The notes under the pieces: generated by a model
The model's input: the letters and a program-made list of their open reading frames with translations, nothing else
Told to the model about the DNA's origin: nothing
Databases searched by the model: none
In this document: positions 31,276 through 43,090 of the stretch, piece by piece
Position numbering within the stretch: the first letter of the stretch is position 1
Layout of the letters: every line of letters starts with the position of its first letter
Made by a program: the position numbers and the translations under genes
DNA from: Escherichia coli
GTDB lineage: Bacteria > Pseudomonadota > Gammaproteobacteria > Enterobacterales > Enterobacteriaceae
Reading direction: 5' to 3' (one strand)
NCBI RefSeq assembly: GCF_003019035.1
Contig: NZ_CP027447.1
DNA length: 64,000 bases

Positions 31276-32313
31276 ATGTTTTCCGCATTGCGCCACCGTA
31301 CCGCTGCCCTGGCGCTCGGCGTATGCTTTATTCTCCCCGTACACGCCTCGTCACCTAAACCTGGCGATTTTGCTAATACCCAGGCACGACATATTGCTAC
31401 TTTCTTTCCGGGACGCATGACCGGAACTCCAGCAGAAATGTTATCTGCCGATTATATTCGCCAACAGTTTCAGCAAATGGGTTATCGCAGTGATATTCGG
31501 ACATTTAATAGTCGGTATATTTATACCGCCCGCGATAATCGCAAGAGCTGGCATAACGTGACGGGAAGTACGGTGATTGCCGCTCATGAAGGCAAAGCGC
31601 CGCAGCAGATCATCATTATGGCGCATCTGGATACTTACGCCCCGCTGAGCGATGCTGACGCCGATGCCAATCTCGGCGGGCTGACGTTACAAGGAATGGA
31701 TGATAACGCCGCAGGTTTAGGTGTCATGCTGGAATTGGCAGAACGCCTGAAAAATACGCCTACCGAGTATGGTATTCGATTTGTGGCGACCAGCGGCGAA
31801 GAGGAAGGGAAATTAGGCGCTGAGAATTTACTCAAGCGGATGAGTGACTCCGAAAAGAAAAATACACTGCTGGTGATTAATCTCGATAACTTAATTGTTG
31901 GCGATAAATTGTATTTCAACAGCGGTGTAAAAACCCCTGAAGCAGTAAGGAAATTAACGCGCGACAGGGCGCTGGCAATTGCGCGTAGTCATGGAATTGC
32001 CGCAACGACCAATCCGGGTTTGAATAAAAATTATCCGAAAGGCACTGGGTGTTGTAATGACGCAGAAATATTCGACAAAGCGGGCATTGCTGTACTTTCG
32101 GTTGAAGCGACTAACTGGAATCTTGGGAATAAGGATGGTTATCAGCAACGCGCAAAAACAGCCGCATTCCCTGCAGGAAATAGCTGGCATGACGTAAGAC
32201 TGGATAATCAACAACATATTGATAAGGCACTTCCTGGAAGAATAGAACGTCGCTGCCGTGACGTTATGCGGATAATGCTACCTCTGGTGAAGGAGCTGGC
32301 GAAGGCGTCTTGA
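31276..32313 (+). CDS. iap: Alkaline phosphatase isozyme conversion aminopeptidase Iap (M28 family, 345 aa)
   Basis: Signal peptide, M28 metal ligands, position adjacent to CRISPR array. Confidence 0.9.
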   Translation: MFSALRHRTAALALGVCFILPVHASSPKPGDFANTQARHIATFFPGRMTGTPAEMLSADYIRQQFQQMGYRSDIRTFNSRYIYTARDNRKSWHNVTGSTVIAAHEGKAPQQIIIMAHLDTYAPLSDADADANLGGLTLQGMDDNAAGLGVMLELAERLKNTPTEYGIRFVATSGEEEGKLGAENLLKRMSDSEKKNTLLVINLDNLIVGDKLYFNSGVKTPEAVRKLTRDRALAIARSHGIAATTNPGLNKNYPKGTGCCNDAEIFDKAGIAVLSVEATNWNLGNKDGYQQRAKTAAFPAGNSWHDVRLDNQQHIDKALPGRIERRCRDVMRIMLPLVKELAKAS

Positions 32314-32394
32314 TGGGTTTGAAAATGGGAGCTGCGAGTTCTACCGCAGGGGCGGGGAATTCTAAGTGATATCCATCATCGCATCCAGTGCGCC

Positions 32395-33094
32395 CGGTTT
32401 ATCCCCGCTGGCGCGGGGAACACTTGCAGTAGCACTTCAGTTCTGTTTTTGTCACCGGTTTATCCCCGCTGGCGCGGGGAACACGCCTGATAGCGCCTCC
32501 AGCCTTCGCCCTGGTGCGGTTTATCCCCGCTGGCGCGGGGAACACTGCATAGCTTTGGCTTCTTCTTTAACGGACGCCGGTTTATCCCCGCTGGCGCGGG
32601 GAACACAGTACCACTGTTTTTTCTTCGGTGCCCAGCCACGGTTTATCCCCGCTGGCGCGGGGAACACGTTTACATATTTATACCTACACGCTCAATCGAC
32701 GGTTTATCCCCGCTGGCGCGGGGAACACCCGTTTTCGATTGAACAGAAAGATTTCAACACCGGTTTATCCCCGCTGGCGCGGGGAACACAATACAGACCC
32801 GTTGTACGGTTTTTGCGAGCACGGTTTATCCCCGCTGGCGCGGGGAACACTTGGAAATCACCTCCCCGATCTCCGCGCTGTCCGGTTTATCCCCGCTGGC
32901 GCGGGGAACACCCCTCGGCAAAAATGCCTTTTTCCTCGTCGGTCGGTTTATCCCCGCTGGCGCGGGGAACACCACGGGCCAGACGGTAGCAACAATTTTA
33001 CGGCCGGTTTATCCCCGCTGGCGCGGGGAACACCAAAACGGAAGTGCCAGTATTGCCAGAATCACCGGTTTATCCCCGCTGGCGCGGGGAACAC
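32395..33094 (-). CRISPR. CRISPR array 1 (type I-E): 12 identical 29-bp repeats CGGTTTATCCCCGCTGGCGCGGGGAACAC (plus-strand reading), 11 spacers of 32 bp; leader at high-coordinate end
   Basis: Repeat starts at 32395, 32456, 32517, 32578, 32639, 32700, 32761, 32822, 32883, 32944, 33005, 33066; perfect 61-bp periodicity. Confidence 0.98.
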
Positions 33095-39044: not shown

Positions 39045-41744
39045 TCAACCAACCTTGCCAATCAATCCCTCCGTAGCCGAATACCCACAACTTTCGTCAT
39101 CGGTGACTAAAATCACGTTTGCCATCTCCGGATCATGCCGCTGTTCAACGCACCACTGCCTGAACGCATCCCCTTCCAGTAAAGAAAACTCATCCCGATG
39201 TTTTTTCCACCAGCTTCGGCGCACTCTGACAACGCTCATTTCCCATGCGTGTGCACCTGTGGCATAAGGCTTCACCACACCGTCAATACAGGTAGCCAGC
39301 CACAGGGAAACAGACTCTTCAGCCAGACGTGTCGACAGTTTTTCCGGGAGGTAATCGTTGATATTGGCGGCATAGCCGGGCCTGAAGTTCAGTACAAACT
39401 TTTTAGCCATTGCGCGATCGCAGTAATATTTGCCCACTTGCTCCTGCTCGCTGCGGGCAAACCCTTCCGGCATTACTACGTCCTCACCGTAGACTGATTC
39501 AATCAGAAGCCGGGCTGAGTGTGGCATCTGAATAGCACCTTGCTCACGCAGCACACGCTGCGTCAGCCAGATTCGCCCATGATCGGGATAGACAAATGCA
39601 CTGTTACGCATGGCACTGCCAAACCATTCGTCACCCGGAGAGTCGTCCCAGACGGGGGCCAGAATCAGCAATTCAGGAGGGTGACGCTCGTCTTTACCGT
39701 CACGCTTTAACTGGCCATTCATATCGCGGATATGTCGCTGTAATCGCCCTGCTCGCTGGATCAGTAAATCAACAGGGGCAAAGTCGGAAATCATTTCGTC
39801 CAGGTCGCAGTCAACGCTCTGCTCCAGGACTTGAGTACAAATGAGGACTTTTCCGGCACGCTGTGAACAGTCTTCTTTACCAAAGCGTGCCAGCGTCTCC
39901 GTTTCAATTCGCTGGCGATCGCTAAAAGCAAAGCGGCTATGAAAAAGTGAAAGGCTGGAAGCAGGAATGACGCCGCGGGCAAGTAACTGACGATGAACCT
40001 GGATGGCGTCATCGACAGAATTTCGGATCCAGGCGATACATTTCCCCTGACTTACCGCCGATTCGATACGCGCAATACACTCTTGTTCGCTATGAAGCCA
40101 ACCCACACTCACGCTGCGCTCAACGTCTTTGCGCGTCGCTACCCGGTGTGAATGCACATCGGATTTCGTAACGTGCGTCAGCCAGGGGTAATCATCCTTT
40201 TCCAGGAACGGAGCTTCTTGCTGGCCCTCTATACCACGCGCAAAGGCAGCAACGAGTTTGTCGCGCTGCTGTTGAGATAACGTGGCAGAAAGCAAAATGA
40301 CGCTGTTTCCGCCACGCGCCTGCCGCTCGATCAGCCCTTCAAGAATGCATGACATGTAAGCGTCACAGGCATGGATCTCATCAGCCAGCAGGATTTTGTT
40401 ACTCAGTCCCAGAAGCCGCAGATTATTATGTTTGAACGGCATCACAGCCATCATCGCCTGATCCAGCGTGCCGACGCCAATTTCAGCCAGTAGCGCCTTC
40501 TTGTTACTGTCGGCAAACCAGGCCGCACATCCCTGACTGCACGTTTGTTCATCCGGTTCTTCTGACCCGACTAAATCACCGGACCAGAGTGATTCATTAA
40601 AGCGGTCCATTAATGTTCGGGCACTGTGTGCCAGCACCAGGCTGGGGCGGGACTCTGGCGAATAGAAAGCAAGCCAGGTTTTGACCAGTCGATCGTACAT
40701 GGCATTGGCCGTTGCCATTGTTGGCAGGCCAAAAAACAAACCCTGCGCTTTCCCCGCAGCCATCAACCTGTGCGCCAGGATAAGCGCCGCTTCTGTTTTA
40801 CCTGCGCCGGTTACATCCTCCAGAATAAATAACTGTGGTCCCGGCTGGCTGATATCCAGATCCAGCACCTTTTGCTGTAGCGGTGTCGGATTCTCAATAA
40901 AAGGAAACAGCGTATTAATTCCGGTGAAAGGCGCGCTTTCTGCTTTTGGAGGAAAGACGGTTAAGGCGTTTTGAGCCTGAACTAAAGTTTTCTGCCAGTA
41001 ATCTTCAATATCCATTGTCTGTGCGACGCGTGGAAAATATCGCGTTGACGATCCCGTCCAGTCTGCAAGTACGACGGTTGCAGAGATATACCAGGAAAGT
41101 TGTTTTATAAGTTCAACGCCCTCGTCATCATCCCAGAATGTGGGGATCTCTATGAGCGGAAACAGTACCTTGATTGCAAGGAGAAAATCTCGTGCGGCAC
41201 CTTTGTCTTCAGGCAGAAAATTATCCAGTTCATCCATACGCTCAGGGGGTCGACCATGATGCCCGGTAGTCATGGGCATCCACATCTCCATCACCCGTTT
41301 AAGTTTGCGCGGAGAGAGTGAAGATGAAGGAAGCAACTCCTGACATTCACTTAAATAATGGTTCCACAACCAGTAGCCCAGCGTTGAATGAGAGATCTTT
41401 TCGTAATTCTTTCTTGCGCCTTCCGGAACCTTGAGTTGTGGGTGCAGGTAAAGTTGCTGAAAAGAGCGGGCAAATTTTCCAATATCGTGCCAGCACAGCA
41501 GCCAGGCGAAAAATTGTGCTGCCAGCTCCGTGTCAGCGAAACCTAATTGACGAAAATAGTCAGCCAGTCCGAAGCAATTGCTTTTAACCATTAAATAGCC
41601 CATCGCGGCTACATCCAGCGAATGCCAGCAAAGAAGGTGATAGTCGTCACCACCCTCTTTCTCGCCGCGTCGGGTTTTTCCCCAGAAATCAAAAAAAGTC
41701 ACAATATTTTTATCCTTCAGTAAACTTAAAGGATATTTACGCAT
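39045..41744 (-). CDS. cas3: Cas3 HD nuclease/SF2 helicase (type I signature, 899 aa)
   Basis: N-terminal HD domain, DEAD-box helicase motifs (GAGKTE, DEIH). Confidence 0.92.
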   Translation of the reverse strand: MRKYPLSLLKDKNIVTFFDFWGKTRRGEKEGGDDYHLLCWHSLDVAAMGYLMVKSNCFGLADYFRQLGFADTELAAQFFAWLLCWHDIGKFARSFQQLYLHPQLKVPEGARKNYEKISHSTLGYWLWNHYLSECQELLPSSSLSPRKLKRVMEMWMPMTTGHHGRPPERMDELDNFLPEDKGAARDFLLAIKVLFPLIEIPTFWDDDEGVELIKQLSWYISATVVLADWTGSSTRYFPRVAQTMDIEDYWQKTLVQAQNALTVFPPKAESAPFTGINTLFPFIENPTPLQQKVLDLDISQPGPQLFILEDVTGAGKTEAALILAHRLMAAGKAQGLFFGLPTMATANAMYDRLVKTWLAFYSPESRPSLVLAHSARTLMDRFNESLWSGDLVGSEEPDEQTCSQGCAAWFADSNKKALLAEIGVGTLDQAMMAVMPFKHNNLRLLGLSNKILLADEIHACDAYMSCILEGLIERQARGGNSVILLSATLSQQQRDKLVAAFARGIEGQQEAPFLEKDDYPWLTHVTKSDVHSHRVATRKDVERSVSVGWLHSEQECIARIESAVSQGKCIAWIRNSVDDAIQVHRQLLARGVIPASSLSLFHSRFAFSDRQRIETETLARFGKEDCSQRAGKVLICTQVLEQSVDCDLDEMISDFAPVDLLIQRAGRLQRHIRDMNGQLKRDGKDERHPPELLILAPVWDDSPGDEWFGSAMRNSAFVYPDHGRIWLTQRVLREQGAIQMPHSARLLIESVYGEDVVMPEGFARSEQEQVGKYYCDRAMAKKFVLNFRPGYAANINDYLPEKLSTRLAEESVSLWLATCIDGVVKPYATGAHAWEMSVVRVRRSWWKKHRDEFSLLEGDAFRQWCVEQRHDPEMANVILVTDDESCGYSATEGLIGKVG

Positions 41745-41912
41745 ATATTAAAAATTATCTGTGATATATATCGTTCAATAAAATATTTACATTATGAATA
41801 ATCAAATAATTTTCATCCGTAATATATATGAATAATAAACATAGGCATAATATTCACATAAACAATATAAATTAAAAAAGGGTGCAGGAGACCAAACCAT
41901 CACAATTCAGTA

Positions 41913-41932
41913 CGCGGGGTTTTACCCCCGCG
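41913..41932 (-). terminator. Hairpin CGCGGGG-TTTTA-CCCCGCG just downstream of hok-like ORF stop
   Basis: 7-bp GC-rich inverted repeat read directly. Confidence 0.45.
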
Positions 41933-41938
41933 TGGTGG

Positions 41939-42091
41939 CTACTTCTTCGATTCGTAAGCGAGAACCGCCTTAAACTCCATACCACGTTCTCTGATACTCA
42001 ACTCACACAACGAGTCGCCTACCATCAGCGTGAATCCCAGTACTGTAAAACACAGCACTATGATTGCCACAAGGGCATATTTTGTCAGCAT
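41939..42091 (-). CDS. hokX: Hok/Gef-family type I toxin (50 aa), likely hokX of the hokX-sokX locus
   Basis: Own translation [52 protein letters not shown] helix + conserved LCE...AYES Hok signature; GGAGG RBS; below 60-aa cutoff so absent from ORF track. Confidence 0.8.
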
Positions 42092-42355
42092 GTCTTGCCT
42101 CCCTGCAAAGAAGAGACTAACATTCGAATTGTTTGGGTTCGAACGCTGGCCTCAGGTTGATAGAAATATCGCCTGGGGCTTTTGTCCATCTGGAACCTCG
42201 CGAATGCTTAACGCCAGACAGCCTCAAGCACCCAACGCCATTCTATACCTGTTAATTCTTCCAACGACGTTCACGTTTAAAATCAGGAATGCTGCTCGCA
42301 AAATAAAAACGCCCCCATCATTTCTGACAGAGGCGTTTAATTTATCCGGCAATAT

Positions 42356-43090
42356 TTACCCTTCGTGTAATCCACATTCCCTTTTTAAGCCAAAGAAACG
42401 CGTTTCTTCTTCCGCCATGCCGGGTTCCCATTTACGGGTTGTATGGGTATCGCCCACCGATAAATATCCTTCATCCCATAATGGGTGATATTTCAGGCCA
42501 TGTTTTTGCAGGTACTGATAAATAGTTCGGTTATCCCAGTCGATAATCGGCAACACTTTAAATACACCACGCTGGATAGCCAGCACCGGTAAATTAGCAC
42601 GGCTGCCGGATTGTTCACGGCGCAGGCCAGCAAACCAGGTTTGCGCATTCAGTTCTTTCAGCGCCCGGTTCATCGGTTCGACTTTGTTGATGTCATTGTA
42701 CTTTTCAATGCCTTCAACGCCCTGCTCCCACAGTTTGCCGTAGCGTGCTTCCTGCCAGGCGGCGCTTTCAGTAGCACGGTACACTTTCAGGTTGAGCTTG
42801 AGTTTATCCGTTAACTCGTCAATAAAGCGGTAGGTTTCCGGGAACAGATAACCGGTATCGGTGAGGATCACCGGAATATCCGGGTGAATCTGATTCACCA
42901 GATGCAGGCTCACCGCCGCCTGAATGCCGAAGCTGGAAGAAAGCACATATTCACCGGGCAGATTATCCAGCGCCCAGGCAACGCGGCCTTCAGCGTCCAG
43001 TTTTTCCAGTTCGGCGTTAGTTTCCGCCAGCGCCAGAATGCGATCTACCTTCGGCAGTTCGTTCAGGGCGTTTAGATCGAGTTTGGACAT
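42356..43090 (-). CDS. cysH: Phosphoadenosine phosphosulfate reductase CysH (244 aa)
   Basis: Starts [15 protein letters not shown]-terminal ECGLH motif. Confidence 0.96.

Follow-up and report, generated by a model that had tools for sequence, protein, structure and literature searches.

The DNA analysed here, hereafter the window, is a 64,000-nucleotide stretch of the Escherichia coli contig NZ_CP027447.1, numbered from its first letter. The interval 41745-42355 within it is exactly the spacer between two minus-strand genes, cysH, whose stop codon lies at 42356, and cas3, which starts at 41744. These 611 nucleotides are 100% identical to Escherichia coli SMS-3-5 (NC_010498.1). On the minus strand the spacer carries a short gene of the Hok/Gef toxin family, hokX, with its leader, while the plus strand encodes a small antisense RNA, SokX, inside that leader. 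The cysH terminator bounds this arrangement on one side and an AT-rich stretch lies between it and cas3 on the other; in strains that do not have this cas3, other sequence takes the place of the AT-rich stretch. The positions of all features are collected in Table 1. Two further Rfam matches at 42298-42398 on the minus strand, ctRNA_p42d (24.9 bits) and Spot_42 (19.7 bits), correspond to the cysH terminator, fall below the gathering scores and were taken as chance.

Table 1. Features of the cas3-cysH spacer, ordered by window position
Feature	Position	Strand	Remarks
AT-rich spacer upstream of cas3	41745-41873	none	GC 0.18-0.23; outside the hok module
Inferred full-length hok mRNA, about 355-360 nt	41874-42233	-	From Rfam position 1, the conserved boxes and the U-run
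fbi-like 3′ box GGUCUCCUGCACCC	41880-41893	-	Complementary to the mRNA 5′ end; U6 follows at 41874-41879
GC hairpin, 8 bp, ACGCGGGG/CCCCGCGU	41912-41933	-	Just after the hok stop codon
hokX CDS, 50-aa Hok/Gef toxin	41939-42091	-	ORF list, Pfam PF01848, RefSeq WP_000956460.1
12-codon leader ORF	42085-42123	-	TGA overlaps the hok ATG (ATGCTGA); start 8 nt from the Sok 5′ end
34-codon leader ORF	42085-42189	-	GAGG 6 nt before ATG; covers the Sok target completely; stops on the hok ATG
Putative Sok promoter	42095-42123	+	TTGCCT 42095-42100, 17 nt, TAACAT 42118-42123; start G42131 about 7 nt on
hok Shine-Dalgarno sequence GGAGG	42098-42102	-	6 nt before ATG; overlaps the complement of the Sok -35 box
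Sok target hairpin GAGGC...GUCUC, loop CCCAAACAA	42113-42153	-	From the Rfam structure and folds
SokX antisense RNA	42131-42189	+	K-12 ncRNA sokX b4701 (2887353-2887411) maps here
SokX hairpin	about 42148-42180	+	The 5′ tail GUUUGGG, which can pair with the target loop, precedes it; a U-tract follows
Local partner of the 5′ box, UUAAGCAUUC	42202-42211	-	Forms the 5′ hairpin after removal of the 3′ box
5′ box GGGUGCUUGAGGCU, tac-like	42220-42233	-	Two mutually exclusive partners: the 3′ box or mRNA nt 23-32
Putative hok promoter, -10 box TAGAAT	42240-42245	-	Inferred transcript start G42233
cysH intrinsic terminator	42307-42338	-	14-bp stem and T-run; insulates the hok locus from the cysJIH operon

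The hokX coding sequence

An initial annotation, drawn from the nucleotide letters and a list of open reading frames, had described a 50-codon minus-strand frame in this spacer as an unlisted, hokX-like type I toxin gene. We recovered the same frame with the same translation. The word unlisted applies to the open reading frame track, from which this real toxin gene was missing solely through a 60-aa cut-off, but not to RefSeq, which lists it as ECSMS35_RS14600 / WP_000956460.1, a "Hok/Gef family protein". Profile searches with Pfam, NCBIfam and Rfam models gave positive results for the Hok family. The Pfam HOK_GEF profile (PF01848) was matched over model positions 1-42 of 42 (E 3.5e-11), and the best NCBIfam model was the HokA equivalog, at 57.7 bits (E 9e-16) against a curated cut-off of 89; the NCBIfam Hok subfamily model scored 41 against a curated cut-off of 73. 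The score below the HokA cut-off indicates that HokX is a distinct paralog at a different locus. The single transmembrane helix and the C-terminal Hok signature that had been read from the protein were likewise borne out. Kyte-Doolittle hydropathy over a 19-residue window reaches a maximum of 2.78 at residues 6-24, consistent with a single N-terminal transmembrane helix, and the motifs TKYAL, LCEL and LAYE are common to HokX and an IncF-plasmid Hok-family protein and are conserved in the 56 relatives.

These relatives come from a scan of one genome per species, which yielded 56 Hok loci from Escherichia, Citrobacter, Kluyvera, Klebsiella, Enterobacter and other genera. For the alignment (A2), copies at contig edges were dropped and second copies within a locus were added, giving 55 copies plus the window, again 56. 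Across these copies the hok coding sequence shows 0 indels and is intact in 55 of 56, and its summed entropy at codon positions 1, 2 and 3 is 18.5, 7.7 and 39.9, respectively, so that the third position is the most variable. This pattern points to coding-type constraint on hok across genera. No disrupting mutation was found in the hok coding sequence of the window. The locus of Kosakonia sp. S29 (L047) has TCG in place of the TAG hok stop codon, and its frame continues past the usual end.

The GGAGG ribosome-binding site named in the initial annotation is present 6 nt before the ATG. The stretch that contains it, GGAGGCAA, is near-invariant in the 56 loci, with AGGCAA found without exception and the Kosakonia locus alone reading GCAGGCAA. 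We also weighed whether the frame might be open by chance and resemble Hok superficially. It is short (50 codons) and lay below the earlier cut-off; the full-length Pfam match, the Rfam match described below, the RefSeq annotation and the codon-position bias across genera refute this explanation, to which we assign practically no probability.

The hok leader and the SokX antisense RNA

The leader at 42076-42233 on the minus strand matches the Rfam sok family (RF01794) over positions 1-157 of 157 with 111.1 bits (gathering score 59, E 4e-26), and no other Rfam family attains its gathering score anywhere else in the 64-kb window. As the match lies on the hok-sense strand, the model describes the hok leader. 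A TAnnAT hexamer stands 6-7 nt upstream of the 5′ box in nearly all of the 56 loci, and its conservation at a fixed distance suggests that transcription begins at about G42233. The TAGAAT at 42240-42245 is not accompanied by a good -35 box. A scan for consensus promoters picked up neither the hok promoter nor that of Sok; both are proposed from conservation across loci.

The predicted full-length hok mRNA folds with a z-score of -3.6, and its minimum free energy (MFE) structure closes the 5′ and 3′ ends on each other, with nt 1-14 of the window RNA pairing with the 3′ box. Both fold-back elements (fbi and tac), which the initial annotation had named as a point to check, are present and conserved across loci. 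The 5′ box, GGGTGC.TGA (GGGTGCYTGA), is invariant in 56/56 loci, all of which also carry a 3′ box complementary to the 5′ end, located 34-57 nt, mostly 44-51 nt, past the stop codon. On the alignment, 87.4% of the cells in this helix are paired, compared to 31-56% for partners slid 1-3 columns along, and six cells show double-sided changes. The six innermost fbi pairs (columns 1-6 with 377-382) show no double-sided change and are hence uninformative either way. The duplex of the window has an energy of -21.8 kcal/mol, which was equalled by 37 of 2000 random window segments and is therefore moderately unusual, so the argument for the fbi pairing rests on the conserved position and on the slid-partner comparison.

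The 5′ box has a second, local partner. When the mRNA is truncated at nt 317, i.e. with its last 39 nt removed, the MFE fold forms the alternative 5′ hairpin. The core helix of this hairpin is 98.2% paired in the alignment; one of its pairs shows 21 double-sided changes from C-G to U-A. This switch between 5′ hairpin and 3′ box is the fbi/tac refolding logic of plasmid R1 hok. The Sok target hairpin shows 26 double-sided changes at one inner pair in the 56-locus alignment, and the GC hairpin behind the stop codon shows a double-sided change at one pair in 17 sequences of the 56-locus consensus fold.

The GC hairpin had been noted in the initial annotation as lying downstream of the gene, and it is indeed there, but the end of the transcript is elsewhere. 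We considered it as the hok terminator and rejected this assignment: it has no U-run after it, and the conserved transcript is about 50 nt longer, reaching the fbi box and TTTTTT. The hairpin is the probable stop point for 3′ trimming. No intrinsic terminator after hok was called in a terminator scan.

An antisense Sok RNA had been expected in the leader at about 42100-42250, and the K-12 sokX sequence sits within this range, on the plus strand. In the annotation of K-12 MG1655, sokX (b4701) lies on the plus strand between cas3 and cysH, and between the mRNA 5′ box and the hok ATG, sokX included, the K-12 sequence shows no difference from that of the window. SokX folds at -28.2 kcal/mol (z -3.5). 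The Sok consensus hairpin reaches -15.1 kcal/mol on the antisense strand but only -8.0 kcal/mol on the sense strand, the reason being a U-G pair of the antisense RNA that turns into a C-A mismatch in the sense RNA. Upstream of SokX, the -35 box is invariant and the spacing fixed across the 56 loci, and in the -10 box variation is confined to positions 3-4, with T1, A2, A5 and T6 the same in all. Published data show that SokX RNA is made in other strains: it was seen under all conditions tested in a K-12 transcriptome (bioRxiv 10.1101/2024.06.20.599902) and was also detected in EHEC (PMC5331693).

Thus, the cysH-cas3 intergenic region is, with high confidence, a chromosomal hokX/sokX type I toxin-antitoxin module, and from its sequence the SMS-3-5 copy is apparently intact. 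The presence of hokX/sokX at cysH is previously known; a RefSeq annotation and a name in the literature exist.

Distribution and linkage to cysH

At least 80% of the 356-nt hok mRNA region is present in 4,146 of 5,426 complete E. coli genomes. The initial annotation had considered the position of the gene beside the cas3 promoter region notable. Comparison of loci does not sustain this emphasis, as the hok locus tracks cysH, including where cas3 is missing or a different cas3 is present. In LF82 the order is cysH-hok-iap with no cas genes. In ET358, IS421 directly follows hok at mRNA nt 317 and a CRISPR array alone remains. This cas3 lies downstream in only 3 of the 12 cysH-linked loci examined, and K-12 has cas genes and is missing hok. 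Orthologs in Kluyvera, Lelliottia and the unclassified Enterobacteriaceae isolate RIT691 likewise follow cysH. Judged by the loci compared, hokX is linked to cysH and not to cas3, and its position by the cas3 promoter is incidental; hokX marks the constant cysH-side edge of a variable CRISPR-Cas region.

These data also bear on the idea that the module is tied to its CRISPR-Cas neighbour, either by guarding the cas island as an addiction cassette or by sending read-through transcripts into cas3. Indeed, hok, the AT-rich spacer and cas3 are co-directional, the terminator scan called nothing between hok and cas3, and the truncated hok leader of K-12 stops 91 nt short of the cas3 start codon in that strain. 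Against such a tie stand the loci just described, with hokX by cysH in strains that lack cas genes (LF82) or hold a CRISPR array alone (ET358), the low share of loci with this cas3, and K-12, with cas and no hok. In a survey of UPEC strains, hok together with sokX was found at cysH in 90%, the rest having sokX alone in the K-12 manner, compared to 46% with type I-E cas genes (PMC12736100). We regard a functional tie to cas as very improbable. We also looked in the literature for a cas3 promoter or start site mapped to the hok-cas3 spacer, and this search returned nothing usable.

The cas genes of this region are themselves of two kinds. The Cas3 of the window (39045-41744) is about 29% identical to K-12 Cas3, which occupies the same chromosomal position, and is 88-94% identical to the Cas3 of some other Escherichia loci, indicating two very different type I-E cas variants at one site. 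Two such variants at one chromosomal site are also described in PMC12736100. RefSeq annotates a CRISPR array at 31777-33086 of the window, beside cas2; in a scan of the whole window every Rfam CRISPR-DR family stayed below its gathering score.

Several loci depart from the arrangement of the window. In K-12 MG1655 (L003, 3220-3579) the hok promoter, leader and sokX are kept, and the sequence diverges completely right after the hok ATG (window 42089), so that an orphan sokX was kept and hok was lost. Alleles of the B type (ET358, L061 2817-4095; H56-H60) match mRNA nt 1-317 only. The IS421 behind hok in ET358 is frameshifted and removes the fbi box, with the CRISPR array remaining before iap, while in Rosetta2(DE3) chaA adjoins hok, suggesting a rearrangement. 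Three loci labelled Pseudocitrobacter (L005, L006 and L007) have a HokX 100% and a CysH 97-99% identical to those of the window, and the Cas3 of L007 is 93% identical; this likeness, which equals that among Escherichia loci, suggests recent transfer, contamination or mislabelling. Five loci (L026, L029, L030, L040 and L046) contain two tandem hok copies, each preceded by a leader of its own, at a distance of about 500-1200 nt.

Leader reading frames, proposed control and related systems

An element of a hok/sok module that we did not recover in its classical form is the overlapping mok frame, which the initial annotation had expected. At the classical mok start, which lies 7 nt past the GAGG in the target hairpin, there is no ATG, GTG or TTG; the codon is TCG in the window and in all Escherichia orthologs. 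An ATG is found at this site in 9/56 related loci. In six loci of Kluyvera and Klebsiella (L024, L026, L034, L035, L037 and L038) the ATG 7 nt after GAGG is in the hok frame, predicting a 67-aa, N-terminally extended, MokC-like Hok. In L014 and L018 it begins an ORF of 18 codons that is out of frame with hok and terminates at the hok ATG.

The leader of the window contains non-canonical reading frames only. The shorter, of 12 codons, is present in roughly half of the relatives. Its ATG falls on the complement of the Sok -10 box, and one clade has ATA there instead. That the ATG at 42123 is conserved as a start codon is doubtful, since its invariance matches the opposite-strand Sok -10 box (T1, A2, A5, T6) and the G of the ATG varies. 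The longer frame, of 34 codons, has its ATG (42189) and GAGG inside the Sok-complementary stretch. Among the 56 loci compared it is open in the window only, as it is in the identical K-12 leader, and the loop allele that carries the open frame is common. We rejected it as a conserved mok because in other Escherichia orthologs it is disrupted by a TAA in frame or by a 1-nt loop deletion. The same loop differs in a second respect. The YUNR U-turn motif is absent from the target loop CCCAAACAA of the window and K-12, whereas some other Escherichia orthologs have the loop CCUAAG, which contains CUAA.

The missing mok start leads to the main rival of a working module, namely that the locus is a hok relic whose structure is preserved but which is translationally silent, with no functional mok start and no measurable effect of SokX or hokX, resembling the inactivated hok loci of K-12. 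We consider this unlikely, yet clearly the most probable of the rival explanations. In its favour, the canonical start is missing not only from the window but from every Escherichia ortholog, and the ATG of the 12-codon ORF, with its ATA variant, may be conserved merely as part of the Sok promoter. Loss of the gene is evidently tolerated, as K-12 has deleted hok from the start codon and IS421 has removed the fbi box in B-type strains. Moreover, according to Pedersen and Gerdes 1999, as cited in PMC7232551, none of the five hok loci of K-12 is functional. A silent relic is, however, hard to reconcile with the coding-type constraint on hok, with 0 indels and 55/56 intact copies across genera, with the retention of the mRNA region by most complete E. 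coli genomes (counts above), and with a strong Shine-Dalgarno sequence, GGAGG 6 nt before the ATG, that is almost invariant. In addition, all elements that restrain translation are conserved, which would make little sense if translation never happened.

On the reading of the locus as a working module, Escherichia hokX may have lost the classical mok start and could instead be translated by termination-reinitiation from a leader ORF that stops at AUGCUGA. The 34-codon frame of the SMS-3-5/K-12 allele, in which the change from CCUAAG to CCCAAA removes the in-frame UAA and in which a Shine-Dalgarno sequence and AUG lie inside the SokX-complementary region, would then be a variant form of Sok control. 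We offer this proposal as speculation of low probability. A weaker addition to it is that unterminated hok transcription may feed cas3.

For the sequence of events at a working hokX/sokX module we rely on the R1 paradigm, from which hok mRNA processing, RNase III cleavage, translational coupling and toxicity are carried over by analogy. A weak constitutive promoter (-10 TAGAAT) would produce a hok mRNA of about 355 nt from G42233. In the full-length mRNA the 5′ box and the 3′ fbi box would pair, keeping the RNA closed, untranslated and unreactive to Sok. Slow 3′ trimming to the GC hairpin would take away the fbi box, allowing the 5′ end to flip into its local hairpin, and the trimmed leader would expose the hok ribosome-binding region together with the hairpin targeted by Sok. 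SokX, about 59 nt long and made from its own promoter within the leader, would meet the target loop first with its 5′ tail and then pair along mRNA nt 45-103. This pairing would block translation of a leader ORF, and hence of hok, and mark the duplex for RNase III. Once SokX is exhausted, the 50-aa HokX would be made, enter the inner membrane and collapse the membrane potential. A search of the literature found no published toxicity test of HokX.

Beyond correct annotation the significance of the locus is slight, as it is a hok/sok module of the textbook type. Two points are mildly useful to specialists: hokX represents a subfamily that lacks the classical mok start, and the locus is a fixed border of the variable CRISPR-Cas region on the cysH side, to which region it is not tied.

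The closest known counterpart is the hokX/sokX pair of E. coli, named in E. coli B and represented in K-12 MG1655 by sokX (b4701), which likewise lies directly downstream of cysH. K-12 sokX is identical to the window in leader and SokX sequence, and B-type strains have the same Hok protein, WP_000956460.1. The three differ in what remains of the module: K-12 is missing everything from the hok ATG on, and B-type strains are cut after mRNA nt 317 by IS421 or rearrangement with loss of the fbi box, whereas the SMS-3-5 copy is complete. An intact homolog of "hokX", described as first identified in E. coli B, has been reported from the cysH-iap region of AIEC (PMC7232551), and hokX/sokX is listed in another strain (PMC11598369).

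With hok/sok (parB) of plasmid R1 and the srnB/pnd-type systems of IncF plasmids, hokX/sokX shares a Hok peptide of about 50 aa, the GG..C.UGAG 5′ box and 3′ fbi box, the GAGGC target hairpin, an antisense RNA with an internal promoter, and the GC hairpin after the stop codon. In contrast, the plasmid Hok proteins are just about 40-43% identical to HokX. An IncF plasmid copy also has an ATG 6 nt after the target-hairpin GAGG and a mok-like extended frame, where hokX has TCG, and hokX/sokX, being chromosomal, has no plasmid to stabilise. In a tblastn search of a plasmid collection, the only match of about 100% to HokX was NZ_CP134663.1; we discarded it, as this 4.9-Mb record is evidently a chromosome filed as a plasmid.

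Finally, hokX belongs to the same chromosomal Hok family as hokA and as hokB to hokE of K-12, with HokA providing its nearest NCBIfam model. Escherichia paralogs whose proteins are 76-80% identical to HokX have the leader architecture in common with it. The leaders differ in the frame of an early ATG: in putative hokA-like paralogs an ATG at about nt 111 is in the hok frame, while in hokX it is out of frame and its ORF stops on the hok ATG.
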